From: Somniosus microcephalus
Lineage: Eukaryota
Length of the DNA: 64,000 bases
Reading direction: 5' to 3'
Assembly (NCBI GenBank): GCA_052327205.1
Contig: CM126213.1
Location: 79,546,001-79,610,000 of the forward strand
A program made the translations under genes and the position numbers. Below, piece by piece: positions 14,203-54,399 of the stretch. Position 1 is the stretch's first letter. Each line of letters starts with the position of its first letter. Below the pieces are notes generated by a model that ran no database searches, was not told where the DNA came from, and saw only the letters and a list, made by a program, of their open reading frames with translations.

Positions 14203-15113
14203 GGCCTAGAAATTCAGTTGTTTGTGCCAGCCGCTAGCACCTTAGGAGGAGGAGATGTGGGACGCTAGGCGGCTAGCGGCCGGGTGCAGCGCGATCTGCG
14301 CCTCTCCCCAACTTCAGTAAAGATTTAGCGGCGGCGCAAAGCCTTTGCGCGCGCTCAGCTGCGCGCGCAGATCCTGACGTCATTTCATCGTGCAACGCCC
14401 TTTGTTCGCCCCAAACCGGAAATTCAGTGGCGCCGCCCTATTGTGCGCCTGGCGCCCCTAGCGACTGGTAGAGGGGAACGGTTCTCAGTCGATGCAGGCC
14501 GCGGGGGGCGCAAATTAAAGGGCACTCCTCCTGCAGTAGAAAAGGCAGCCTTTTTGCAACACTCCTTCTTTGTGAGAGACGGATCTTTGCAGAGAGACAA
14601 AGGTAGAGAGCTTTCTGGTTTGGCTCAACACTCGCACAGGTACTTGTGGCTTCAGGCCACAGCTTTGCACTTATCTTTAACTTCAGAGCCATAGCATTGA
14701 TTGGAAACATATAATGGGGGCTGCAATGGGTGCAAACATTGGCCTTCTCCATAGTCCTGGGCGTTGTACAGATGAAGCAGCAGTGGTCAGGCCTTGCTTC
14801 AGGGCTGCAGTGTGCAGGGCGTGGCAGGCAAACAAATCCACCCTCCCCCTTTAAGAGCTCACCGGCGCCAGAGTGTCTGCCGTCAATCAGCAACTCGCCG
14901 CACCTGCGCTGCACCCGCCCTCGGGGGTATCGCCCCGGGCCGCCGGCTTAGCGCCTAATAATAGTCGTGCATCACCTGTTTTAGCGCAGCAGCAACCTCT
15001 TGGGGCGATGCGACTGAATATCGGCGAAGGTGGCGCGAACTTGCGCCGGGCGCAAACTTTAGCGGCCGCCCGACTGTAGCGCCCCAAACGTGGCTATACT
15101 GAATTTCTAGGCC
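14203..15113 (+). mobile_element. Non-autonomous Harbinger related to the 41175-45493 element, inserted in a CR1-like 3' UTR
   Basis: Perfect 16-bp TIRs GGCCTAGAAATTCAGT with TSD TTG (14200-14202, 15114-15116). Both arms align by eye with the two ends of 41175-45493. Confidence 0.9.
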
Positions 15114-20445: not shown

Positions 20446-21292
20446 GGGCAGGATTTTCATTGGGCCGTGGAGTCAGGATTGGAGGCGTGCGGGGGGTTAA
20501 AATCCTGAAATCAGGGGTCCCGAACACATCCCGCACCCAAACCCGCCTCCATACCAGTTTCAAAGGAGGCGGGTACCCGCCCCGCACTGAGACCCGCCTA
20601 CCCAAGGCGGGAAGGGATTAGCGCCAATTAACTGCCTGTTAACAGGTAGTTAACAGGCAGTTTTTAGCCTAATCCCTATTTTTAAGGTTGAAGTGTGGGA
20701 TTCCTGACGGCTCCAAACCATGCCAAGTTAGAGGAGGCGGGCCGTCGGGTTGAAGGACTTGGAGGGGTTGAGATGTCGGTGTTCAGGTGAGTGATGGGTG
20801 CATGAGTGCAAAAGTAAGTGTGTTTGGTGCGTCTAAAGTCATTAAATAAGTTTTACATACCTTTTCTTACCTTTTCAGCCTCCCTTCCTTTAGGTCTCAG
20901 AGTCCCTCATCTCACCGGCGCAGAAAGCAGAATGGCCACGAACTGTCAAAAGTGACAGCCTTCAGCTTTCTGTGCAGGAGAGATTTCTAACTGATAGTCT
21001 GTGGAGAAGGACTCAGGTTAGAAGTAAGACTGTCAGTGTTTGACAGCTTCAAACAGCTGTGAAACGCTGATATTTCATCTGTCAAAAGCTCTTGATAGAT
21101 GAAATTTCAGTCTGTGTGACGTCACCTGTTGCCGGATGGCCCTTAATTGGCCTGCTGAGCCCACTGGGTGGGCTCAACAAGGTCAATCAAGTTAAAATCG
21201 CGTGGATTGGCTGCATCTTGATGGAGGCGGGACTACAACCCCGAAAGTTGTAGTCCCGCCTCCAACCTGACTCCTGAATGAAAATCCTGCCC
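20446..21292. mobile_element. Non-autonomous Harbinger-type element
   Basis: Perfect 16-bp TIRs GGGCAGGATTTTCATT with TSD AGT (20443-20445, 21293-21295). Repeated ACCCGCC/GGCGGG subterminal motifs and internal hairpins, e.g. 21222-21263. Confidence 0.88.
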
Positions 21293-29676: not shown

Positions 29677-32600
29677 TCAGTCTTTGAGAGGCTTCCTGAT
29701 TCTGTCTGGATAATGCCTCTTTGGGGTATCAGGTTCTTCTGGTAATGTTGAGTCGAGATCAATGTCGTTGTTTGGTTCATCTGCTTCCAATATCACCGAT
29801 TCTGCGGTAGCTGCAATTGGTACATCGATTTCATTGCCAGGTGTATCAGATCGTGGTGTGGAGTTGACGTTTTCCAGTGACTCTAGAATCTGGTCAGCAT
29901 GGCGTCTTACAATGCTCTCTCCAACGTCCACGGTATACATGCGAGGTCCTTGCCGTGTACAAATCGTTCCTGGCTGCCATTTCTCAGTGCGGTAGTCCCG
30001 GGCCAAAACTGGTTGACCTATCTTAAAACTCCTGGTCGGCCTTTCATTCATATTCTGAAACTGCCTGTTCTCCACATCTCTTCGGACGTTTGGCTTAAAC
30101 AAATCCAAGCGGCATCGTAGTCTTCGATTGAAGAACATCATGGCTGGGGTTTGGTTGGCAACCGCATGTGTCGCATTCCGGTAGGCAAACAAGAAGTTGT
30201 CCACCTTGTGTTGTAGGGGCATATCTTCATTACACATTGCCTTGATAGCCTTCTTGAATGTTTGGACAAACCTCTCGGCCAATCCATTAGCGGCTGGATG
30301 ATATGGGGCAGATGTGTAATGCTTAACGCCATTGTTCTTTAAGAACCTCCGGAACTCTTCAGACACAAACTGTGGTCCATTGTCAGAGCAAATCTGTTCA
30401 GGCAGCCCATTCCTGGCGAATATGGTTCGTAAAACTGTGATAGTTTTTTCCGTGGTGGTTGAGGACATTTTTATTACCTCTGGCCACTTTGAATGTGCAT
30501 CCACCGCAATTAAAAACATCGAGTCCATGAAGGGACCAGCAAAATCAATGTGCACCCTTTGCCATGGAGATGGGGGCCACTCCCATGGATGCAGAGGAGC
30601 TTGTGGTGGGGCGTTTTAGACCTTCTGGCATCCTGCACAGCTCTTGGTCATCTCTTTGATTTCTCTATCGATTCCCGGCCACCACACAAACGCACTGGCT
30701 AAGTTCTTCATTTTTACCCCACCCAGATGACCCTCATGAAGCTCACTGAGTACTCTATCCGTCAACTTAGGTGGAATTACTACTCTGGATCCACACATCA
30801 AGGTCCCTCTGCACACTGACAGCTGTTCTCTTCTCGGCGAGAATGCTGGTAGCAGTGGTTCGCCATGTGCTGGCCATCCCTTCACCGTTAAATCATAGAC
30901 CCGTGATAGTGTCGGGTCATTCCGTGTTTCCTTTTCTATGTTTGCATTCGTCACAGGGAGACATTCGACTATGGTCGAGTGGAATAACTCCATTGGATCC
31001 ACTGCAAGGTCTTCTTCTTCCACCGTCGGCAACGGTAGGCGTGACAATCTATCAGCATTTCCATGCTGTTTAGTTCCTTTGTACTCGATGTCATATTGGT
31101 GTGCCCCTAGGAAAAGGGACCATCTCTGCAGCCGTTGTGCCATCATTATCGGTACGCCCTTCTGAGGGTTGAAAATGGAGACAGGAGGTTGATGATCGGT
31201 TAGTAGAGTAAATTTTTGACCGTGCAGATAGTGATTGAACTTCTTCACCCCCCACACTAGGCTGAGGGCCTCTCTGTCAATCTGGGCGTAGTTATGCTCG
31301 GCAGAAGTTAACGAGCGTGACGCAAAAGCTATCGGCTTCTCTAAACCATCAAGGAATTTATGTGACAGTACCGCCCCAATGCCGTAGGGAGACGCATCAC
31401 ACGCCAGCCTGATTGGCAGTGCTGGGTTGTAGTGAGCCAATACTTCCCTTGAAGTGATTAAGTCCTTACTCTTCTGAAAAGCACGCTTACAATCATCGCT
31501 CCATTTCCATGCTACCCCCGTTCGTAGCAGGGCGTTCAGTGGGTGCAAAATTGTCGACAAATTCGGCAAAAACTTATGATAGTAATTCACCAACCCGAGG
31601 AATGACCTCAGTTGCGACACATTTTCAGGCGCTGGGGCCTTAACAACCGCTTCAATTTTGTCAGGGGACTTATGTAACCCCTCTTCATCAATCACGTGGC
31701 CACAATACGATATCTGTTTCTGAAAAAACTCGCACTTGGGGCGGTTGGCTCGCAGCCCATGTTCCCGTAGTCTAGTGAGCACCTGTTCTAGGTTGTTAAG
31801 GCGTTCACTGTCATCTTCACCTGTTACAAGGATGTCGTCCAAGTAACACTGAGTCCCCGGAATCCCTTGCAGGACTTGTTCCATCGCTCTTTGCCATATC
31901 GCCGGAGCCGATGCTACTCCGAATACCAATCGATGATACTGGTAAAGACCTTTGTGAGTGTTTATCGTGAGATACTTCCTAGAGGACTCTTCAACCTCCA
32001 TCTGCAAATATGCTTGTGCTAGTTCAATTTTTGTAAAACGCTTCCCTCCAGACAGTGAGGCGAAGATGTCTTCTATCCTTGGAAGAGGATATTGTACTGT
32101 GTGAAGGACAGGGTTCACCGTCACCTTGAAATCCCCACAGATGCGAATCTTCCTTGGCTCTCCGGACTTATTGCTTAACGTTTTCTTCATGACAGGAACG
32201 ATGGGTGTCGCCCACTTGCTCCAGTCGACCTTGGACAACACGCCCGCCTTCTCCAGATTCTCCAGCTCTGCCTCGATGGCTGGGCGAATTGCATATGGTA
32301 CCAGTCTTGCTTTGAAAAACTTGGGAACTGCATTCTCTTCTATTTTTATCGAGGCGGTTATGCCTTTAAGCGTGCCCAGTTCTTGTTGAAATACCTCTTT
32401 GGCGTTAGCTAAGATTGTTGACAATCGTCCAGGAGTGACGTCTTCATCTTTTTTACCATCCACCGTCATTGCATGAATGGAATGCCAATCTAAGTTTATC
32501 TTCCTGATCCATTCCCGTCCCAATAACGGTGGTCCACCATTTGGCAGTATGTAGAGATACAATTTCCGTATTTTCTTGCCATTGTATTCGACAGGCACCC

Positions 32601-33627
32601 TTATTTTTTCTCTGGGGTATACCTTTTGCCCCGTATACGTCATCAAGACGATGGATGTCTCTCTCAAGGGTATGTGTGAAAATAGCCGCTCGTAGTCTCG
32701 TCGATTCATGACGGTTAGCGCTGATCCTGTATCCAATTCCATTTTAACTTGGGACCCTGCTATCGTGAGGGTGACCCAAATGGTTCGGTGATCCTCTTTT
32801 GCGATTACATTGTGAAGTTTGAGACAGCTTAGTCTCCTGTTTCCGGATTCACTATTGCTCATCTGGTCTTCGGAACTACTGTCCGTCATCTTTTGTACTT
32901 TCTTGTACGGTTCCTTAGTAGCCTTTTTGTTGTTGCTGGTCTTCTTCCCAGACCTGCAAACTCGTGTAATGTGTCCAATCTTCCTGCATTGTCTGCATAT
33001 TTTGTCTTTGGACCAGCAGTCCTTCTAGTCATGGTTAGTTCTGCCGCAGCGATAACATTTTGCAAATCCCCGTGTCATTTCGTGGGTGCCGTATTCCTGT
33101 GGTTTTTGTTGAATTTCTGCAGCTCCCCTGGCTGCTGCTTCATACGATACTGCCACGCTGAAAGCCTTATCTAGCGTCAGCTCTTTTTCTGAGAGTAACT
33201 TCTTCTGTGTTCCTTCACTCAGGAGTCCACAGACAAATTTGTCCCGTAGGGTATCTGCCAGTCCTGCTCCGAACTGGCAGTGCTTTGATAGCTTGCGTAG
33301 TTCCGTAAGATACTCAGCATTGCTCTCATCTTTGTGCTGAGTTCTCCTGTGGAATTTAAATCTTTCTGCTATCAACAGCGGTGCAGGGTTTAAGTGTTCC
33401 TGTCGGACAGCAACAATTTCGTTAAAACTCTTTGCCTTCGGTTTGGCTGGAGTAATCAGGTCCCGCAATAGGCCGTACGTTCTAGCGCCCATTAAGTTTA
33501 GCAATATCGATGCCTTTTTCCCCTCCGCTATTTCGTTTGCCTCGAAATATACCTCGACTCTTTCCACATACGTGGTCCAGTCCTCTAATGTATTATCAAA
33601 AGCAGTGATACAGCCAGTCTTCGGCAT
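29677..33627 (-). pseudogene. gag-pol: Single-frame gag-pol polyprotein with two nonsense codons
   Basis: ORFs 33025-33627, 30616-32889 and 29677-30555 are all in one frame, separated only by TAG (33025-33027) and TAA (30616-30618). Motifs: two CCHC knuckles, protease LDTGS, RT YLDD, RNase H CDAS, integrase HHCC and HIDF/SDNG/AER. Confidence 0.94.
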
Positions 33628-34206
33628 CTTGCAAATCTAAAATGGTGCCTCCCGCGCTTTGCCTTCTTCCCCGATTTAACAAAATGGCGCCTCCCGCGCT
33701 TTGCCTTCTTCCCCGCTGTTGTTAGCGCTGCTTTCCACGGTTCCTTGCACGTTAAATATTGATTCTTTTTCTTTTATTATTTTCCCATCGTGGAGCGGAC
33801 CCTCTGGGACACTTCCCTCCCTCTTCTTAGGTCCGAACGCTGCCCGGCTTCGAAGCACCGGCCGCGCCCTGTGTGCTCCACCCTCTCTCTCTCTCTTTTC
33901 TTCCCGACTCGCTGCCCGGCCCCGTTGAAAAGCCACCCGATCGAGCTTCAGCCCGCCGCAGCCCAGGAAGGATCAGAGCACTACCTGCCACCAGCCCGAT
34001 TAGCTGGGAAACCACAGACCGAGGAACCCAACCTGGCTCTGGAAAGTCTCTCCTGCAAGTTTTCAAACCGATGATTGACGGTCGACGCCCGTTTCCTGAG
34101 TTTCTTTGGACTCTATTTTTTTTTCTTTCTTCTGGCTCCGACCTTCAATAACGTCGTCTGAGGTGCTGCCGAGTTGCAGGTAAGTTCGTTTCTTACTCGT
34201 CGCCAG

Positions 34207-39467: not shown

Positions 39468-40621
39468 TGATGCTAGCATAATATTGTTTTTTTTTGTATT
39501 TCTTTCATTTTTTTTCCACATGTCCTCTCTTAAAATTATTAACAGAGATGGAATCTTAATTATTAAGGAATTTCTTAATCAATATATGTTTATCTTCTTA
39601 CTTGGCTTGTTTTAATAATTACAAGTTTTGTGTGTGACTGTGAACAAGTGTGTCCTGATTGTTTGGATGAGTGGATGAGTAATTAGCTCCCTCTATTGGT
39701 GATGTAACATCATGCATGCACAGGTCATGCTTCCATCACATGGAGCATCAGGAAAAATTTACTCACCCTATTGCAATCATGCTGATCGACCGCAGTTCGA
39801 CACAAAGACGAATGCCCTTTATTTCTCTGCATAGAACAATGCCACATTTACCGTCGGATGTGTGGAAGCATTTTAACCCAGGCATTAAAGATGGAAAGAC
39901 TGTGTACATGTGCAAACACTGTACGAAGCCATATGTAAAGAATGCCACAAATATGCAGCATTTATCCAAATGCAACAACTTCACTCAAAGTTCTTCTGCT
40001 TCCATTCAAGAAGATGATGGTTCACATTCAGCATCAGGCTCCTTATCATCAGCAACTCCTGGCCCACTTGGAAGGTTCTTTGATACAATGGATAACCATA
40101 GCCAGAAGAATGCAGATGAGTGCCTTGCTCGAGCTGTATATGCAACAAGCTCACCCGTCATGCTCACAGCCAATGTGTACTGGAAGAGATTTTTCAATGT
40201 TATCCGCCCTGCATATTGTCCTCCCACCAGACATGCTTTGTCTACTTATTTGCTGGAGGCTGAGTATAACAGAACCCAAGGAAAGCTCAAAGAAACGATA
40301 GAGAGGGCAGACTGTGTTGCAGTTATCTCAGATGGGTGGTCAAATGTACGAGGGGAGGGCCTCATAAACTACATTTTTATTTTATTTTAGATGGGTCTTT
40401 TTTGTGGGGGTTCAATAAAGTTCAAAATTATAACCTAAATAAAATTTTGAAAGCCTGTTTTTATTTGTATGGAACAGTATGTCTATTTTGATGACAAAGA
40501 TAATATAAGGGTCAGAGACAAAAACCATCATTGTGCAAAAAAACTCAAAATTCCCATAAATTCCCATAAATTTGCATGGAAAGATTCCTCTTTTAAAAAT
40601 TCCCAGAATTTTGCAACCCTA
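39468..40621 (+). mobile_element. hAT transposon deletion derivative (BED finger + N-terminal catalytic region)
   Basis: From ATG 39839: DVWKHF...CKHC...HLSKC (BED zinc finger) and ISDGWSNVRGEGLINY (first catalytic Asp), after which the ORF truncates at 40390. The right TIR is TTTTGCAACCCTA (40609-40621); the left TIR was not found. Confidence 0.8.
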
Positions 40622-41060: not shown

Positions 41061-41140
41061 GGGATTTGAACTCATGTCTCCGGATCATTAGCTCAGGCCT
41101 CTGGATTACTAACCCAGTAACATAACCACTATACTGCCAT
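41061..41140 (-). promoter_or_regulatory. tRNA-like Pol III internal promoter (A/B boxes) at the 5' end of the LINE
   Basis: On the minus strand, an A-box-like TGGCAGTATAGTGG at about 41126-41139 and a B-box GAGTTCAAATCCC at 41061-41073. Confidence 0.6.
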
Positions 41141-41674
41141 TCACACTGGTAATGAAGGTGATTCAAAACTTTTAGGGCTAGATTTTCAGTTGCTTGCGCC
41201 AGCAGTTAGCGCCTTAAGAGAAGTGATTTCCGGGCGCTATGCGTGTAGCGCCCGGGCGCAGCGCAGTTTGCGCCCCGCCCCAAATTAAGTTGCCCGTTAG
41301 CGCCGGCGCAAAGTTTAGCGCCCGCCCGGATGCGCGCGCAGAAAATGACGTCACATCCTCGTGCAACGCCCTTTGGCCGCCCCGATTGCAAACTTCAGTC
41401 GGACCGCCCCATTGTGCGGCGGGCGGCCGGAGCGTTTGGAAAAAGGAACGCAACACAACCAGCGCGGGCCCCGGGGGGCGCTAATTAAAGGGAACGTCCT
41501 CTCCAGTATAAAGGCCATCCATTATTTCAGAAAACAGTCTTGTGCAACGCATTTCTGGAGACACAACAAGGAGGATAGCTAACTGGTTTCAAGCAGCAAG
41601 AGCCAGGTATTTTTGGACTCAGGCAACAGCGCTGCAAGTGTCCATTTGGAAATTAGAGTGTTTGCCAGGATTTG

Positions 41675-42835
41675 ATGGGGGTTGCATGGGGTGCCAACGC
41701 GGAGCTGCAGCTCCATGTCCGTAGGGCTCGCAGACGTATTGTCAGAGGGGCAGCCCTGGCTAGAGGCAGAGGGGGCTACAGGCGTCGGCCACGTAGGCCT
41801 TACCCAGTCAGGCTATACCGCCAGCAGCGCTCCTACCTAAACATGAGTGCCGCGCGATGTGTTAAAAGGCTCCGATTCCGGAAGGGGGTGATTGCAGAGA
41901 TCTGCCACCTGCTTCGCCGAGATCTGCGGCCAAAGCTCAGGTGCAGGACGTCTCTGTCGGTGGAAGTGAAGGTGACAGTGGCATTGAACTTCTATGCCAC
42001 CGGCTCCTTCCAATACGCTGCTGGGGACATAGCAAACATCTCCCAGTACGGCGCGCATCGCTGCATCCGCCAGGTGACCGAAGCACTGTTCAGAAGGAGA
42101 AGCCAATTCATCTCCTTCCCCATGGCCCTGGAGAGCCAGCATCAGCGCGCATTGGGATTTTCCAGACTCGGGGAATTCCCCTTGGTGCAGGGCGCCATTG
42201 ACTGTACGCATGTGGCTTTGCGGGCCCCTCTGGAGCATGGCGAGCAGTATCGCAACAGGAAGGGCTACCATTCTCTGAATGTGCAGCTGGTCTGTGACCA
42301 CAAGCAGCGCATCATGGCAGTCAATGCCAGCTTCCCAGGCAGCAGCCACGATGCCTTTATCCTGCGGCAGAGTACTGTGCATGACATGTTCCAGGCACAG
42401 CCTCCCCCAAGAGGATGGCTACTCGGGGACAAAGGCTATCCTTTGTGCACCTGGCTCATGACCCCGCTCCGCGCGCCCAGGACCGCTGCTGAAGAGGCCT
42501 ACAACGAGAGCCATCAAACCACCCGCAACATCATCGAGCTAACTATTGGGGTCCTCAAGCAGCGGTTCCGCTGCCTTGATCGCTCCGGAGGAGCTCTCCA
42601 GTATTCGCCGGACCGGGTCTCCCAATTTGTGGTGGTTTGCTGCATGCTACACAACCTGGCTATCCGCAGGACTCAGGCACTGCCACCTGACGTTGGACCA
42701 GCACCTCAGGAGGAGGAGCAGGAGGAGCATGAGGAGGAGGAGGAGGAGGAGGAGGAGGAGCAGGAGTACATTCCCAGGAGGGAGCGACCAGGGCCAAGGG
42801 CCGCACGACGCCACCTTATTACACGGTACTTCTAA
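41675..42835 (+). CDS. Harbinger DDE transposase (HARBI1-like, DDE_Tnp_4 type), 386 aa from the ATG
   Basis: Uninterrupted ORF with GAIDCTH, NRKGYHSLNVQLVCD, PGSSHD, GDKGY, IIELTIGVLKQRFRCL and CCMLHN. All three catalytic residues are present, followed by a poly-Glu tail. Confidence 0.95.
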   Translation: MGVAWGANAELQLHVRRARRRIVRGAALARGRGGYRRRPRRPYPVRLYRQQRSYLNMSAARCVKRLRFRKGVIAEICHLLRRDLRPKLRCRTSLSVEVKVTVALNFYATGSFQYAAGDIANISQYGAHRCIRQVTEALFRRRSQFISFPMALESQHQRALGFSRLGEFPLVQGAIDCTHVALRAPLEHGEQYRNRKGYHSLNVQLVCDHKQRIMAVNASFPGSSHDAFILRQSTVHDMFQAQPPPRGWLLGDKGYPLCTWLMTPLRAPRTAAEEAYNESHQTTRNIIELTIGVLKQRFRCLDRSGGALQYSPDRVSQFVVVCCMLHNLAIRRTQALPPDVGPAPQEEEQEEHEEEEEEEEEEQEYIPRRERPGPRAARRHLITRYF

Positions 42836-43198
42836 GCCCCCTGTCAGGGAATGGCCAGGGGCCATGAGGGAAGATGAATGCAGCCGCTCCGCAAGCCCTC
42901 AGCCGGCGAAGCCAACAAACACTAAGAAGAACAACCATGGAGACTGCATGAATAAAGATAATTTTTTATTAAACAAAAATGAAAAGCCCTTCCCACATGA
43001 ATCCCCAAAAACAATAAACGGGCCCCACAAAAAGCCCAACAAACGACTCACTCCCACAAACTGGGGAGGAGCCACTCCACCTTTATTGAAACCGGGCCTC
43101 AACGTCGGCCTAACGCAAAAAAAAAGCCCTCCAAAAGCACAACCATGGGCAAAATAAAGATGGCCACCGCCATATTAAAGGAAAGCTGGCCACACCCT

Positions 43199-45139
43199 CT
43201 ACTGAGTGGCCCGCGAGGGCGAGACCTTGGCCAGCATTTTGCCTCCCCTGCCCTGCCTGCTGCTCCTTCGCAAGCTCTGCCCAGTGGCTGCTGCGAGGCT
43301 GGGGGAAGGCGCCTGAGGCTCAGATGCCCTTCCGCCAGATGCCGCTGGGGGGCGGCCTACACGGCGTTTGGGCCTCGAGGGGCCGTCTCCTGAGTGGCGC
43401 GCCTGAGCCTGGCCACCATCAGCTGCAGCCGCTTGCCCTTGACGCCCCAGAGGGGGAATGGCGGCGACGGATGGTGCAATGTGGGCCAGCTGGCGTCTGG
43501 GATGCGCTGGCTGGTGCTGTGGCGCGGTGGCACTCGGCCGGGCCCGCACTGCAGGATCCGCAGCAATCAGCCGACGGCCGGCTTGCTGGGATGGTCCAGC
43601 GCGGCGCCTGCCCTGGCGATGCCTGCCTGAGACAGCGCGTGTGGCAGCAGTGAGTGGCCCTGTGGTCCTGGTGTGCGCGTGCATCACATCCGCCAGGGTC
43701 TTGACGGCATCAGTTAGCATGCGGCCAGTCGCGGCAGTTGCTGCCCCGAACTCGCGCACACTGGTCGCCAGCGACTCGATGGCCTCAGGCATGCGCCCCA
43801 CCACGCTCATGAGCTCCGTGTGGCGCCGGTCCGAGTCGTCGGCCATCTGATCGAGCTTCCGCACCTCCTCCGAAGTGAAGGTGTCCGGACTGGAGTCGCG
43901 ACTCTCCCGCTGGGGAGGAGGGGGCCGAACTAGGGGACCCTTGCCGCGTTGGTGACGGCGAGTGTGCCGAGCAGCAGCACTCCCCTCTGATCCTTCCCCC
44001 CTTTGGGGGGAAGGCCGCGGGCCACGCGCACGGCTGCTGGGTGGCTGGACGCCACTGGTCCCAGAAGCTGCATTGCCCTGCGACAGTTCCTCCAGGCACT
44101 CGTCCAGTGAGGAGGTGTCGAGCATTTCCTCCTCTCCTGCGGGACGTGACTGTTCCCCCGAAGGTCCGGCTTGCTCCTCCTCCTCCTCCTGGTTGGAGGT
44201 GCTGTCACTGGCAGCCTCAGGGTCCTGGTCGTCACCAGCTGAAAGCAGGAATGCACAAGAGTAGCTTCAGAGTGAGGAGACGGCGTCAGCGAGGGAGTTA
44301 GGACTGGTGGGATTCAGCGCATTGGTGGGACAGTGGCAAAGGAGGTAGCTCGGATGGGCCAGTGCGACGCAAGAGGGCCAAAAGGCGAGGTCCTTACCAT
44401 TGCCGGGCAGTGGAGGGTCGGATACACCGCACGCTGTGGGGACAATCACACGTGCTCCCATGAGCACACACACGCGCTCCTCCAGCCGAGTGAGCTTCTG
44501 CAGCTTGGCGCGGCCACCCCTGGCACGGGCCTGGCGATTAAACGCTACTTTAGCCTGCAAGAGAAAGGACGGGCTGTAAGTGCGCAGTGAAGCCCTGATG
44601 TAGTGTGCACTGCCTCCCATGGTGGAATAGCTTGGACAGAGTGAAGCCCTGATGTAGTGAGCACTGCCTCCCATGGTGGAATAGCTTGGACAGAGTGAAG
44701 CCCTGATGTAGTGTGCACTGCCTCCCATGGTGGAATAGCTTGGCCAAAGTGTAGAGTGCCGAATGGCCATTTGATGCTCATGACTGTCCCAATGCTGCTG
44801 GCTGAGGGCTGGCCAAAAGGACTTTCAGGTCCCTTTGCCCATCATGTCAGGTGTACATGCAAGAATGAGGAGGAGACTGGAAAGGCTACTCACCCTCACA
44901 ATCCTGGTCAGATCGTTGTACTTCTTACGGCATTGTGTGTGGGTCCTGGGGGCCTCGCCGGTGAACGTCACCCTCTGGGCGATCTGCTTCCAGGCTTTGG
45001 TGTAGTCGTGGTGGGTTGGATTCCTCCCACTGTCTGGAAACAAGATCTTGCGCCTCACCTCCAGAGCTGTGAGCATGATGTCCAGATCACCCTCTGAGAA
45101 GCGCAGGGCACGCTGACGGGCCTTCTCTGGCGTTGCCAT
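43199..45139 (-). CDS. Harbinger Myb/SANT-like DNA-binding protein, 3 exons (45139-44894, 44554-44398, 44238-43199), 480 aa
   Basis: Exon 1 reads MATPEKARQRALRFSEGDL...AWKQIAQRV...RTHTQCRKKYNDL. The GT-AG introns (gtgagt..ttgcag phase 0; gtaagg..tttcag phase 1) splice to 1443 nt with no internal stop and join ORF 43199-44125 in frame. Confidence 0.88.
44586..44743. repeat. 54-bp tandem repeat x3 in intron 1 of the Myb/SANT gene
   Basis: Unit AGTGAAGCCCTGATGTAGTG(T/A)GCACTGCCTCCCATGGTGGAATAGCTTGGACAG starts at 44586, 44640 and 44694; the third copy is partial. Confidence 0.95.
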
Positions 45140-45600
45140 GACTCCCTGGGGCTGAGCAGTAGTGTTGAGGCCTCTTTGCAAGGCTGCAGTGTGCAGGGCG
45201 TGGCAGCAGACCAATTCGTCCCTTCCCCCTTTAAGAGCTGGTCGGCACCACGGGGTCTGCTGTCAGTGCAAAAATGACCGCACCCGTGCTGCGCCCCGCC
45301 TGGGCGCTATCCCTCTGGACCGCCGGCTTAGCGCCTAAAGAGAGTAGTGGAATGCCTCTTTTAGCGCTCCACCAACCTCTTAGGGCGAAGCCACTGAATT
45401 CCCGGCAACGGGGCGCTACTTTGGGGCGGGCGCTAACTTCGGGCGGGCGCTAAGGTTAGCGCCCCAAAACTGCCTATACTGAAAATCTAGCCCCCGAAAT
45501 TTAAAAGTTGATTGGAACAGAAACAAGGAGATTTAAAAAATTGTCCAGATCAAACAAAGTCAAACTTGAGTTAGCAAGGAACACAGCCAAAGAGAACAAG

Positions 45601-46491
45601 GGGGGGAAATTTGGTATCGCCCCGTTTGGGGCATAATTATCGGCCGGGTGCAAAGTTTAGCACCTGGCGCTAATTATCGTTTCCGACTGCAAATTTGGCT
45701 TCTATCGTCCCTGGAGGTGATTGGAGTGCTAAATCAGGCACTAAATACCTCTCTTAAGGCGCTAATGCCGAGGAGCGAGGCGCTACCTCAGAGCGCTGGC
45801 AAAGCTCATGTGATGTCAGTTAGTAATGGAACACAGACACACTGGCACCGGCCAGTTCTTAAAGGGGAAAGTCGATCTTGCTGTCCATCCACACCCTGCT
45901 CATTGCAGCCTTGAATCAAGGCCTGGAGAGACCTGTACATCAAATCTGCTGGAAAGAACAATGGAGAGGCCCAGGGAAAGAGCTCAGAGTACAGCCCCCA
46001 TAGTCTCTTCTAAATCGATGCAAGGAAGGTCAAATCAAAATGAACCTGCAAAGTGCTGCTCAGTACCCAAAACTCCTTCACACAGCGTTGAATCTTTCCA
46101 GGAGTCTCTCTCTCTCTATCTCAGAATGCGTGGTGCAAAAATGCCGCCGACAAAAAAGGGTAGGAAGCAGTCGCCTTTAAATAGCGCTCCCCCAGTCACT
46201 TCATGACTGCAAAATGCTCCCCTCAACTTGTAATTGCTAGCAGCAGGCGGTAAGGCAGGGGGCACCATTTAGTATCCGCTCCGGGGCACTACTGGGGCGT
46301 TGCACGCTCGACTGACGTCACGATCTGCGGGCGCAGGAGATCGTGGCGGTAGTGTTTAGCGCCACCGCAAAATGTCTGGTCAATTTCGTGAACGGCGCAA
46401 ACATCGCCGCGCCCGGGCGCTAGTTGCTTTGCGCCCCATTAGCGCCCTCTTAGGGCGCTAACGGGAGGCGCAAAGCAACCGAATTTTTCCC
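45601..46491 (-). mobile_element. Non-autonomous Harbinger (TTAGCGCC family), opposite orientation to 49345-50019
   Basis: G-run/AAATT TIR-like ends with CAAG at both junctions. The right end is the reverse complement of the left end of 49345-50019. It retains a Myb-like start, MERPRERAQ, at 45961. Confidence 0.8.
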
Positions 46492-49344: not shown

Positions 49345-50019
49345 GGGGGAAAAATTCAGTTGGTTGCGCCACCCGTTAGCGCCTTAAGAGGGCGCTAAGT
49401 GGGGCGCAAACCAACTAGCGCCCGGGCGCGGCACTGCCCACGCCTCCCGCAAAATTCAGCAGGAGGTTAGTGGTGGCGCTAACCGTTAGCGCTGCGCCGC
49501 TGGTGATGACATCATCGATGTGCACAGCGCCCTGCTCATGCCCCGGCTGCGATCTTCCGGAGCGCCCCCTGATTTACCGCCAGACGCTATGTCCGGCAGG
49601 GTCAGGGTGGCGTACCTGCGGCCGGGGAGGTGCAAAATAAAGGTGAGGTGCGGGGCGGCCATTTTTGTTGTTGGCCACCTGCCTGCGCTCCCCTCCCCGG
49701 CCTCCGGAACCCCCCCCCCCGCAGAGTGCCGGCTGCGCTCCAAGAGCCCGGCACTTCTCTTGGGTGCCGGGCTCTTTTGCCTGCACTCCCGATCCCCGGG
49801 GGCCCAGCTGGGCCCCAGATTGCACTGCACAAGGCCCCTCCCCTTTAAGAAGGGGAGGAAGGCCTGCAATACTGCATGTAGCGCTGCGGCACGTAGCGCC
49901 ACGATATTCACTCGCACCGACCAATTTCCGGTGCGGGAGCGTTAATTTTTCCAGGGCGCTACTTTTAGCGCCCCGGCGAAGTTAGCGCCCCAATCGGGGC
50001 TATACTGAATTTCTCCCCC
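49345..50019 (+). mobile_element. Non-autonomous Harbinger (TTAGCGCC family)
   Basis: TIRs GGGGGA(A/G)AAATTCAGT with TSD ATT (49342-49344, 50020-50022). GC-rich, with internal hairpins such as CAAGAGCCCGGCAC...GTGCCGGGCTCTT. Confidence 0.9.
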
Positions 50020-51004
50020 ATTATCTCTAGAGCTTCCTTCTTCAGTAACGTTATATATAATGGACCCGAATTTGCTGCCAAAATAACAGTGAGTTTAATG
50101 GTGCTCACCGTTATTAATGTGTAAATCATTCAGCAACTTGTAGTGAGGAAGCGATCCCCCATGAATTGTGAATTATCACAAGTTGCTGGTTGATTTCTGC
50201 CGCTCCACTGTTTGCCTCGCAAAAACAGCAGCTCGCCCTCAACCTCCCCGTGAGTTTCATGCAATTGCTGCATTTGCACATTAATTGCTAATTAAATTGC
50301 CGCAGAAAGTTAGGGCTTGTACTTAACAGCGCAAGTACCTTTTTAATGAGCAAATTTATGTTCCTGCAATGCCACTCAACCTCTCCAGCCATAAAAGGGA
50401 ATGATTTAAACTGTGGAGTCTCATTCCCTACAGGTAGTAAGTTGTTAGAGATTTTTAAAATTTAATTTAAGATTACGTTGGGGGCGATTTTCCCAGCCCC
50501 GAGGAGGTGGGTTTGAGGTGGGACAGTTGGCAAAATTGCAAAAACTGAAGGCGGGTTCGGAACCCGCCTCCAACCCACCTCTGTGCAATTTTGCCGGAGG
50601 CGGTTTTGATGGGTGCGATTTGGTCCTGCCTCCATCAGTCGAGAGAGGTAGTTAAGACCCTTAAATAGTAGTTAAGGGCCTCTATAATCCTATTTTGACA
50701 GGCCTCATTATTTTACCACATTTTCAGCCTGTTCCACGACCCTCCTAAACCACGCCAGCTAAACCTGGCGGGTTGACAAGTGGGTGGCCTCCTCACAGCT
50801 GCAGCTCCACCATTAAAACGGAGCTTTCATCAGGGATCAGTTGCAGGTGACATAACTTTTGTTGCAAAGGTCTTTCAGCACTTTTAGTGGGCCTACCGAA
50901 GTCGGAGGTGCTGCAGCTTCTATCTCTCAACTGTGGGACATCCTTGGAAGACCCTCTCCCCGCTAGGACTGAGCGCTTCCCCAACGGAGGTATCTGCCAG
51001 GTGC

Positions 51005-52249
51005 ATGGGAACCATTTATTTCCTTTCACCATGGACCTCTGATTCGGATGAGGAGCAGCCACGGCAACAGCAGAACCAGGCAGCTCAGCAGCAACAGCAG
51101 CAGGAGCGCCAACCTCCTGCTCACCCACCTGATGCTGCACAGGGCAGAAGGTGCCAGCGTATGGAAGCACGTCGCCGCATGAAATACCCCCAACACAGGG
51201 TTTACAGAGAGAGGATGAGCTACCTCAACATGACTGAGCAGCAGTGCCAAAGGAGGCTGAGACTTTCGCGAGAGGTTGTCGGAGACATCTGCGCACTGCT
51301 GCACCAACACCTGGAGCCCAGAGGAGTGGGTGGACACCCCTTAACAGTGGCTGTCAAAGTCACCACCGCACTTAACTTTTTTGCCTCAGGCTCCTTCCAG
51401 GGATCATCAGCAGACATCAGCGGCATCTCCCAGTTGGCCACCCACAGTTGCATCACGCAGGTTACTGATGCCCTTTTTGCAAAGGCGCACAATTACATCC
51501 ACTTCTCAAGGGATCAAGCAAGTGTAACCGCACGTTCAGTTGGCTTTGCAAATAAGGCAGGCTTGCCAATGGTGCAGGGCATCATAGACTGCACACATGG
51601 GGCCCTTAGGGCACCCCATCAGAATCCAGCTATTTTTGTCAACCACAAGGGTTTCCACTCCCTCAACATACAGTTGGTGTGTAACCATAAGGAGGAGATT
51701 TTGCATGTTTGCGCCAGGTTCTGTGGTAGTTGCCATGACTCTTTCATCCTTTGGAACTCTCGTGTTCCTCCGCTTTTCAATCCACCAAACCAACTTAATG
51801 GATGGCTCCTTGGTGACAAGGGCTAACCCCTGAAGAAGTGGCTAATTACGCCGATCAGGAGGCCAGCTACCGAGGCTGAAGATCGCTACAACGCCAGCCA
51901 CATTTTGATCAGGTCCATCACCAAGCAAACCATTGGCTTGCTGAAGATGTGATTCCGATGCCTTGACAGATCAGGTGGAGCCCTGCAGTATTCAGCAGCC
52001 AGGGTCTCCAGAATGGTTGTAGTATGCTGTGCACTGCACAACATGGCACAGTGTCATGGCTTGCAGCTTCCTGATGATGAACTGGCTTGGTTCATAGCCT
52101 CCTCAGATGAGGATGAGGATGAGGAGGAGGTGGAGGAGGAGCAGGAGGAGGACCGAGCACCAGCGTATCGACCAGCAGCAGCGGCAGCACACGAGCACAT
52201 GGCTGCCCGTCATGTAAGGGATGCACTCATCCTGGCCAGGTGTGCATAG
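51005..52249 (+). pseudogene. Harbinger transposase pseudogene
   Basis: GIIDCTH, then GDKG* (TAA 51824-51826) and a second in-frame TGA at 51950-51952. The third catalytic Glu reads Lys (ITKQTIG). CCALHN and an acidic tail follow. Confidence 0.92.
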
Positions 52250-52499: not shown

Positions 52500-54399
52500 C
52501 TATGACTAATGGTGCTTTATTTTTCTCTTATGTGTGCTCCTGCGTGGTGCTCCCCCTGTGGCTTCAGCAGAAGTGGAGGCCCCTTGCTCACTTTGATGCT
52601 GCTCCTGCTTCGACACCTTTGGCGGGTGTCTTCTGGGTTTACGAGCCTGTGAGGGCTCGCCAAACGTCTGCTACGGCAGTGCAGGGGCTGAGACGCCCAT
52701 CTCAGTTGGGTGCGGACTCTGGTGGGGCTCTGACTGAGGGCTACGCATTGTCATGGAAGTGTGAGCGCTTGGAGAGGAGACCCCACTTCCTTGTTCTCTG
52801 CCACCAACTTCCCTCTCATGGGTCAGGTCCACCTCAGCGCTTGCAAGTGGCTTGAGAACACCTTGCTGCACATCAGGGGGGCCATGGGGACCCGTATCTG
52901 CACTGGCAGTCCTACTCAAAAGGACTTCCATGAAGCTCTGGTTTCGCTGTTCATAGCTGCTCATGGCTCCTCCAGAGATGTCAGTCTATTCTGAACAATG
53001 ACCATGTTTTCCTGACTCTGGCGACTTATTTCATCCATGGCCATAGGTTGCCATCCTTTCCATGGTGCTGCGTATATGCGCCATTGCCTCCCCAATGTCA
53101 CTGGTCATGTTAGAGTTGGACGCCTCCATCCTCTTCACACTCACAGTGACCCTGGAGACAAGACCTGTCAGAGACTCCTGCACCTGCTCCTGGAGTTCTA
53201 GCATCGCTCTCCTTCTGGATGGACCCAGAGGCACAGGGTCCACATGCAGTGGAGCAGAGCTAGGAGAGTCCTGCGACCTCCGCCGAGGACTCTCTATTGC
53301 TGTTCCTGTCTCCAACACCTGCTGATGCTCACCTGTGAGATGTGATACACACGGTGACAACACTAATCTATGTCCTGAAGGTCCCACCAAGGTGTGCATA
53401 TCTGCGCTGGTGCTGGGTGCGCTTACATCTGCTGACGCTGCGTCCTCAGAGGTTGCAGGTTTCCCTGAGGAGTCTTGCTGCTCAGCCTCTTCCTCGTCGA
53501 CAGTGGGGTGGGGCTCTGTGGATGGTCCTGTGGGGGAGCAAAGGCATGGGTTAGACATTTGATGGAAGTGTGGCATACACATGCAATGGTGCAGATGCTC
53601 AAGTGGCAGTCTAATAATGTACACCAGCAGCCATTTCAGTCACTCAAGCAGTGTAAATGAGAGCAAGGCAAAACTATTCTGTCACCAGCTTGCTCTGCCT
53701 CGCCCGTCTGTCCGTCCCCCACTTCCACCTCTGTGCTGGCGATGTCCAGGGCCGTCTCTTCAGCCTGGGTGAGATGGGCTAGGGAAGGTGGCCCTCCTCC
53801 TGTCTTCGCCCTTTCCCTTCTATTGTGGGCTCTCTTTTCCTGCAGTGAGGGAGACAAGTGGAGTTGGAGTGAGAATGATGGAGTGAGTGTAGAGAGTCCA
53901 GAGCATAGATGCATAGAAGGAGACAAAGATGGAGTGAGGTTCCATGTCCAAGGGCCCTCCCTGTGCATTCTTGGTCATTGTCATTGCATAACATTGAAAG
54001 GGAGTGTGAGGGAAGCATAGTCGAATCGTGAAGTGATTGGGTTCATAGAGTGGGAGGGATGGTGAAGGGTGCAAGGGTTGTAAGGGTAAAGTGGGATGTG
54101 GAGGAAGAGGTTGACAATGCAGAGTGCTGGTGATGAGAGGAGAAGGGGAGCAGAAGGAGGGTCAAGCTGAAGGTATACTCACTTTGCCTGATCTTACAAG
54201 GTCATTGAACCTTTTATATTCATGTTCTGCTGCACACTGATCTGGAGGTGATGTCCCTTGCCAGCTGTAACCACACAGCCTTGGTTTCTTTGGGAGATGA
54301 GGAGAAGAACACCTCCCTGCTGACTCTCGCCCCCTCAACCAGCATTCCCAGTGCCTCATCGGAGAACCTCGGCGAGGCCCTTGCCTTGGAGTTGGCCAT
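52500..54399 (-). pseudogene. Harbinger Myb/SANT gene, 3 exons (54399-54183, 53839-53686, 53527-about 52500), disrupted
   Basis: MANSKARASPRFSDEAL...VWLQLA...KRFNDLVRSGK with a stop and frameshift in exon 1. Splice positions correspond to those of the 43199-45139 gene. Confidence 0.8.

Follow-up and report, generated by a model that had tools for sequence, protein, structure and literature searches.

The window analysed here is a stretch of 64,000 nucleotides from Somniosus microcephalus (assembly GCA_052327205.1, contig CM126213.1, positions 79,546,001 to 79,610,000), and it carries a two-gene DNA transposon of the PIF/Harbinger superfamily (Table 1). The preliminary description of this locus, made from the letters alone, had listed perfect 16-bp terminal inverted repeats (TIRs), a stop-free transposase with its DDE residues, a convergent three-exon Myb/SANT gene and AATAAA signals on both strands, and all of these were recovered: the two ends form an inverted repeat, the transposase frame runs from ATG to stop without interruption, GT-AG introns join the three Myb exons into an open frame of 480 aa, and the hexamers are present, with two further plus-strand AATAAA at 43013 and 43153. 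What had been missed is that the copy lacks a target-site duplication, with TTA on its left and CCG on its right. The claim of retained CpGs holds as a modest excess (observed/expected 0.66 in the element vs 0.47 in the rest of the window), its weak point being that three other 4-kb bins reach 0.61-0.67.

Table 1. Features of the Harbinger element, numbered by position in the window
Feature	Position	Strand	Basis or remark
Whole Harbinger element, 4,319 bp	41175..45493	+	younger of two subfamilies
Left flanking triplet TTA, likely native target	41172..41174	+	fit to paralogous repeats
Left TIR, 16 bp	41175..41190	+	inverted-repeat match to right end
GC-rich left subterminal repeats of TTAGCGCC type, putative binding sites of the Myb protein	41197..41340		binding role deduced
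Transposase ORF, 386 aa, DDE_Tnp_4, acidic C-terminal tail	41675..42835	+	frame and domain match
Shared 3' region with AATAAA on + (42951, 43013) and - (42965, 43082), putative poly(A) signals	42951..43087		motif
Myb/SANT exon 3, low-complexity and helical region	43199..44238	-	splice model
Myb/SANT exon 2	44398..44554	-	acceptor and donor conserved across diverged families
Myb intron 1 minisatellite of 54-bp units, three in window copy	44586..44754		1-11 units across copies
Myb/SANT exon 1 (ATG at 45139), Myb_DNA-bind_5 domain	44894..45139	-	domain match, splice model
Right subterminal GC-rich repeats	45328..45464		repeat listing
Right TIR, 16 bp	45478..45493	-	inverted-repeat match to left end
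Right flanking triplet CCG, likely foreign, from previous site	45494..45496	+	flank comparison

The transposase matches PF13359 (DDE_Tnp_4) with an E value of 1.4e-39. Among 120 transposase homologs, D176, D226, D252 and E288 belong to the best-kept acidic positions, being conserved in 101/118, 88/116, 96/114 and 82/116 of the aligned homologs, respectively, and D176, D252 and E288 are presumably the catalytic triad. No match to the transposase was found among solved structures (best E 0.02, unrelated). The top 59 homologs all come from sharks and rays, which makes an elasmobranch host likely, and the nearest relatives (sawshark, sevengill, rays, catsharks and others, up to 66% identity) are elasmobranch proteins named 'putative nuclease HARBI1', which are automatic gene labels rather than described transposon families, whereas the window protein is a mobile-element transposase lying inside TIRs. 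A domesticated HARBI1, MSANTD or NAIF1 gene is ruled out by the thousands of TIR-bounded copies at unrelated sites.

Exon 1 of the Myb gene matches PF13873 with an E value of 8e-11, and no homolog of this exon was found among longer proteins at E 1e-8, which is a weak test. The predicted splice model is supported by comparison with diverged families: in fetched flanks, the exon 1 donor lies at the same codon in 12 of the 14 listed relatives under 90% identity (36-88% identical), a matching exon 2 usually follows this donor, and a database protein model (P0004) aligns over the exon 1-2 junction with no gap there. Compared with the majority sequence of the best 30 copies, the window copy has 10 substitutions; six separate it from its nearest sampled copy. 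The sole coding change of its transposase from the majority, V366I, is common to 6/30 copies, and R321H in Myb exon 3 is found in seven other copies of the 30.

A DNA search of the 6.45-Gb genome returned at least 31 full-length copies of 99-100% identity on many contigs among the 34 candidates scored of 2,240, and exact pattern counts gave 5,172 left-end 28-mers, 2,536 right-end 33-mers and 3,126 transposase 32-mers, with 0 for reversed controls. An unbiased sample, the first 100 right ends on one contig (C1), was chosen to escape best-hit bias, and 97 of these belong to full-length copies of 4,206-4,742 bp. The near-identical copies that the preliminary description had proposed to look for are thus present in bulk, and the window element is not a single damaged copy. 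The spread in length is due to the 54-bp minisatellite in Myb intron 1; as its unit number differs (1-11) even between the otherwise identical copies L048 and L075, the minisatellite mutates far faster than the rest of the element. Two subfamilies are found among the 97 copies, a younger one of 66 and an older one of 31, whose majorities differ at 83 sites. Fully intact copies, having both frames, the GT-AG sites, the four acidic residues and perfect TIRs, number 70/97 (55/66 younger, 15/31 older), and by extrapolation from the one contig the genome would hold about 2,460 full-length copies, about 1,800 of them intact.

The substitutions that separate the majorities of the young and old subfamilies are biased towards silent changes (3 synonymous to 1 replacement in the transposase, 11 to 4 in Myb exons 1-2), and the private changes of copies are near neutral (pN/pS 0.5-0.9), together a pattern that would be expected if only working copies seed new ones.

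Of the 80 unpaired left ends fetched, 78 were readable. Short elements bearing the same TIRs account for 74 of these ends (73 elements, 594-937 bp long), the remainder being three diverged full-length copies and one left end without a right end. This implies about 3,800 MITEs (miniature inverted-repeat transposable elements) that share the TIRs of the family. The 73 elements have TIRs and 3-bp duplications like those of the autonomous element and are probably mobilised by its transposase. Related MITEs inside the window had been suggested as such partners. The 911-bp element found there (14203-15113) has perfect 16-bp TIRs with three differences from those of the main element, a TTG duplication and a textbook target, and with ends only 71-74% alike it is, judged by sequence, from a sister Harbinger family; direct derivation from the main element is ruled out, and the family's own MITE is located elsewhere in the genome.

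The family shows an IS5/Harbinger-type DDE transposase, a separate Myb/SANT-like gene, short TIRs beginning GGG/GGC, an extended palindromic target, MITEs with the same ends and a 3-bp duplication in 168/255 copies, the duplication being absent from the window copy (TTA/CCG) and 86 others. For rice Harbingers, GG(G/C)CC termini are listed (PMC4423477). The headline of the preliminary description is therefore a further member of a known group, unusually large and clean.

The unequal flanks of the window copy recur throughout the family. Mismatched triplets were found at 40/126 autonomous copies, as compared with about 3.4 expected from decay at the internal divergence, and at 27/73 MITEs, and on new copies, with the prediction fixed beforehand, 19/53 were mismatched. 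The pooled count is 87/255, about ten times the decay prediction, and 44/255 differ at two or three of the three bases. Left out were L163 and L166 (strand wrongly assigned), L194 (no right end), L149 and L020 (equal to L148 and L088), the truncated L045, L050 and L125, and seven loci already in the set. The rate is 19/48 for isolated and 24/63 for clustered copies.

Empty sites were rebuilt by script, and about 1 Mb of fetched flanks was scanned for uninterrupted homologs. A homolog running ungapped over the empty site was obtained for 23/87 mismatched copies, 61/168 perfect copies and 0/606 shuffled pairings, and 9 of the 23 collinear mismatched sites carry two or three mismatches. The homolog equals one flank exactly in 16/23 mismatched cases (13 left, 3 right), and for perfect copies the best homolog matches in 45/61. 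Bases beyond the foreign triplet show no excess of change (6/128 vs 9/128 on the native side), and 18/19 spanning cases are ungapped. At collinear sites one flank has thus been replaced three-for-three exactly. The window site is spanned by three old paralogous repeats, which score 124/142/125 with TTA kept and 117/138/125 with CCG kept, so that TTA fits no worse than CCG in any of the three.

Outer mismatches involve disfavoured bases in 6/70 cases (p 1e-7 vs random substitution, p 0.47 vs the donor model), and transitions account for 6/32 single mismatches vs 53% of the non-CpG changes inside the element. As the foreign bases follow the target spectrum with few transitions, neutral decay is excluded.

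Perfect sites display a palindromic target preference with the majority TAAAACAC-NNN-GTGTTTTA, in which the information content is highest at the first and fourth positions beyond the triplet (0.9-1.1 bits, 134 perfect sites) and the A/T-rich central triplet is loose, with 25 different triplets in 86 perfect copies. The zebrafish element Harbinger3_DR reportedly prefers a narrower CWG triplet. About 25/202 sites lie inside (ACTCTATG)n-type tails, and insertion clusters occupy one phase of tandem repeats. Several crowded loci were seen besides: five copies within 30 kb, all at one TGA/TCA site (L118-L122, C1 201.90-201.93 Mb), separate insertions sharing a tandem-repeat phase (L032-L036 and L137-L141, C1 16.55-16.64 Mb), three copies within 15 kb on C2 (L012/L267) and a 594-bp element with two left ends (L148).

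The mismatches are also directional. When the outer ones are read as heteroduplexes of a 5' stagger, 56 are of the G.T, G.A, G.G or T.T types vs 11 of the mirror types, a bias noticed post hoc that holds for either strand and either element class; on replication the ratio was 13:3, and pooled it is 69:14, the test having been made without the five rearranged copies described below. Any departure from symmetry in this ratio speaks against both decay and random joining. Mismatch thermodynamics is insufficient as the full cause, since the G part failed replication and the middle base reverses, and the bias is described equally well if the ends prefer 5'-TA(T/G) immediately beyond each TIR.

The window element is best seen as an unbroken member of a two-gene Harbinger family that has recently spread on a massive scale and whose copies often have one foreign flanking triplet. 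The explanation favoured here for that triplet, with moderate confidence, is a donor overhang carried over in a piggyBac-like manner. Excision would leave 3-base overhangs taken from the old target duplication; at integration the donor overhang would usually be removed and the gap filled, giving the perfect duplications of about two thirds of copies, and in roughly a quarter of events the overhang would be ligated in, forming a short heteroduplex that repair or replication would then make permanent. A family accepting almost any central triplet would rarely have matching donor and target, so that carry-over would become visible. A minority of the mismatched copies would come from local rearrangement. 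Established work on related systems describes the following: the Myb protein attaches to the element ends and recruits the transposase, and transposition requires both proteins (PMC2836001), a cut staggered within the duplication releases mPing and leaves 5' overhangs (PMC4561436), mPing brings its donor TTA along when it inserts at Cas9 cuts (PMC11254759), and piggyBac yields asymmetric duplications at non-canonical sites in about 2% of insertions (PMC8717057). A bolder version, in which about 1,800 elements are still transposing with piggyBac-like integration and up to three bases of the host are rewritten in about one of every three or four jumps, is put forward only tentatively.

A number of observations weigh against donor carry-over. 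The origin of the foreign triplet is deduced, no donor-daughter pair having been identified among the copies, and close relatives with perfect duplications share no excess of triplets (2/39 pairs vs 1.9 expected); given this lack of triplet inheritance, donor-target pairing is not needed for integration. Collinearity was testable at only 23/87 mismatched sites (26% vs 36% of perfect ones, p 0.12), and 7 of these 23 match neither flank. One-base mismatches exceed those of random pairs (47% vs 27%), the excess of G-containing mismatches (32:6) was not replicated (4:3), and the middle base leans the opposite way, with 20 A.A vs 9 T.T. The foreign triplet lies on the right in 13/16 resolved cases (p 0.02), or 12:3 (p 0.018) when L223/L224, one duplicated insertion, is counted once, which a symmetric heteroduplex does not predict. 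Finally, five copies are rearrangements, namely the L062/L063 inversion, the L202/L203 composite and L035.

These five copies bear directly on a different origin of the mismatches, by which ectopic recombination or alternative transposition between copies joins the left and right flanks of different insertions. The triplets of L062 and L063 are swapped in inverted orientation, with neighbours of identical length, L202/L203 form a composite of two MITEs flanked on the outside by an ATA duplication, and L035 is gapped; spanning homologs are fewer for mismatched copies, and the triplet composition would likewise resemble targets. Such joining is at odds with the flanks that are collinear at 23 mismatched sites, nine of them with two or three mismatches, and at the window copy, with the empty result of the 606 shuffled controls and with isolated copies being as often mismatched as clustered ones, and the pooled directional bias is unexpected from random pairing. 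Rearrangement is unlikely as the general source, and its share of the mismatched copies is estimated to be a minority, up to about a third.

Exactness of the exchange tells against one-ended or interrupted events, that is, ectopic gene conversion or break repair running past the element end and resolving in the shared target consensus, or the joining of one end by the transposase and of the other by end joining once the donor overhang has been filled in. All sites do share a weak consensus outside the triplet, an asymmetric process would suit the right-end bias (13:3), and homology-directed repair copies mPing in yeast (PMC10288884) and non-homologous end joining (NHEJ) joins mPing with the donor TTA in TATSI (PMC11254759). 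The change is limited to exactly three bases without indel (18/19 ungapped) and with no excess beyond the triplet, whereas conversion and end joining should give variable tract lengths, and this explanation is improbable. Least probable is the alteration of perfect duplications by error-prone gap filling, or by neutral mutation at old sites with a homogenised interior. Single-base mismatches are in excess (32/68), as it would have them, and about 3/126 mismatches are expected from decay; however, two or three bases differ in 44/255 copies, transitions are depleted, the changes avoid the bases that targets avoid, and the adjoining flank bases are not hypermutated.

The age of the family was estimated from the 97 unbiased copies, of which two are identical outside the minisatellite and five more are one change from another. 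At the epaulette shark germline rate of 7e-10 per base per generation, as given in PMC10587355, one change between two copies is calculated to correspond to about 1.7e5 generations, and the mean of 3.2 private changes per copy to about 1e6 generations, an upper-leaning figure as about 5% of copies were sampled. At so slow a mutation rate, a separation of about 1e5 generations is possible even for copies without a single difference. Activity is certainly recent on an evolutionary scale, and current mobility is plausible, with the evidence evenly poised; excision of the window copy is doubtful, because its flanks are mismatched. Of the earlier claim that the element is young and mobile, the first part is strongly supported for a high-copy family of autonomous type, and the second stands at about even odds.

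Other results speak against activity. CpG transitions make up 103/301 private changes, and a proportion of a third indicates that the copies are methylated. The predicted junctions 44894/44554 and 44398/44238 were not confirmed in RNA, as no splice joints appeared in two runs of one organism with 3,982 and 5,053 reads aligned (24% and 31% of the runs read), whose reads differ from the window subfamily at fixed sites and whose tissue is unrecorded, so that their bearing on splicing is limited; two contig runs likewise gave no splice joint. The depth of the RNA reads over introns and ends equals that over exons; the reads lie on both strands and extend into mixed flanks, which looks like read-through from many loci. 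In public contigs no joint over the element, as an empty allele would give, was seen among 15 of 305 joints listed, a search swamped by repeats. One contig of run X1 ends exactly at 45497 with 72 bases unplaced, which is compatible with, and suggestive of, an empty allele, its orientation being uncertain.

A family that is extinct or fully silenced, whose burst is long over and whose copies look new only since sharks mutate slowly, falls just short of an even chance. The rate of 7e-10, which places the 3.2 private changes at about 1e6 generations, the lack of spliced RNA and the CpG decay all agree with it, while the two identical copies and the five at one change from another, the existence of subfamilies of graded age, and RNA reads of a different variant from unrecorded tissue count against it. 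Extinction concerns activity today, and it is compatible with donor carry-over as the best explanation of the flanks.

A near-identical element also occurs in sequencing runs under three organism labels (68-84% of words; runs X1-X11). In a further organism, low-depth pieces are 95-99% identical with almost none of the flanking repeats. Close relatives, contamination or horizontal transfer could account for these occurrences.

Around the element, the window is rich in other transposons. The Harbinger landed in an old low-copy repeat (41140-41174 / 45497-45600) with three paralogs, possibly part of a hAT-like element, and a hAT-like transposase fragment with a weak DUF659 match lies upstream at 39683-40390. 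A second Harbinger transposase (50888-52078), 53% identical, has its frame broken after 51826, and a convergent ORF downstream of it (53031-53639) may be its partner gene. The minus strand at 29677-33636 carries the gag-pol region of a long terminal repeat (LTR) retrotransposon, with protease, reverse transcriptase (RT), RNase H and integrase in three successive in-frame ORFs split by single stops. TIR-like ends and weak matches to the element ends at 20446-21292, 45601-46483 and 49355-50019 are probably older Harbinger MITE families.

What is known of the Harbinger mechanism comes from rice mPing and a single reconstructed element of zebrafish, and a family with about 1,800 intact copies offers native proteins to test. 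The loose triplet exposes a step hidden by the fixed TTA/TAA of mPing, and thousands of natural insertions record the fate of the donor overhang. If carry-over is true, pipelines demanding a perfect duplication would drop one real insertion in three, excision of asymmetric copies may be poor or may leave substitutions of 1-3 bases, and vector builders would need control of donor flanks. If, further, the elements are still transposing with piggyBac-like integration, the superfamily would be a programmed source of multi-base substitutions, the perfect-duplication rule would be overturned, and vertebrate work would gain a native Harbinger vector whose target motif is long. Harbinger transcription is known in teleosts, and in the elephant shark no Harbingers were found, other cartilaginous fish being recommended for examination (PMC9179366), an open point that the present family answers. 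No report of asymmetric duplications in natural Harbinger insertions was found in the literature searched, in which an Arabidopsis MITE paper holds one mention, and subscription papers, Repbase entries and supplements may hold such a report.

Among known systems, the family resembles zebrafish Harbinger3_DR/Harbinger3N_DR, described in PMC2836001 as a DDE transposase with a Myb-like gene, a 3-bp duplication, a target of about 15 bp and a non-autonomous partner; Harbinger3_DR was rebuilt from a consensus, whereas about 70/97 of the sampled shark copies are intact as found. Rice Ping/Pong with mPing is likewise a two-protein system with MITEs for which staggered cleavage of the duplication has been proposed (PMC4561436, PMC11254759, PMC2836001, PMC10288884), and the donor TTA/TAA is seen at Cas9-directed insertions (PMC11254759). 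Its target is fixed as TTA/TAA, so that donor and target usually agree, and its free insertions keep intact duplications (PMC11254759), while the shark triplet is loose and a third of the copies are asymmetric. Harbinger-Snek underwent an explosive expansion in sea kraits, with 269 intact two-gene copies in Laticauda colubrina, short non-autonomous forms and RNA reads over both genes, and the passages on it leave asymmetric flanks unmentioned (PMC8437027); in comparison, the shark family has about 1,800 intact copies, a nearest-neighbour divergence of 0.2-0.9% and a far smaller genome share (about 0.2%). Intact vertebrate Harbingers in bulk are already known; the asymmetric flanks are the less expected part, and a likeness to these is seen in piggyBac, in which, according to PMC8717057 (citing Li et al. 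2013), a donor overhang leads to an asymmetric duplication after host repair. That element belongs to another superfamily with a 4-bp TTAA target and shows the asymmetry in about 2% of insertions, whereas the shark family shows it over 3 bp and in about one third.

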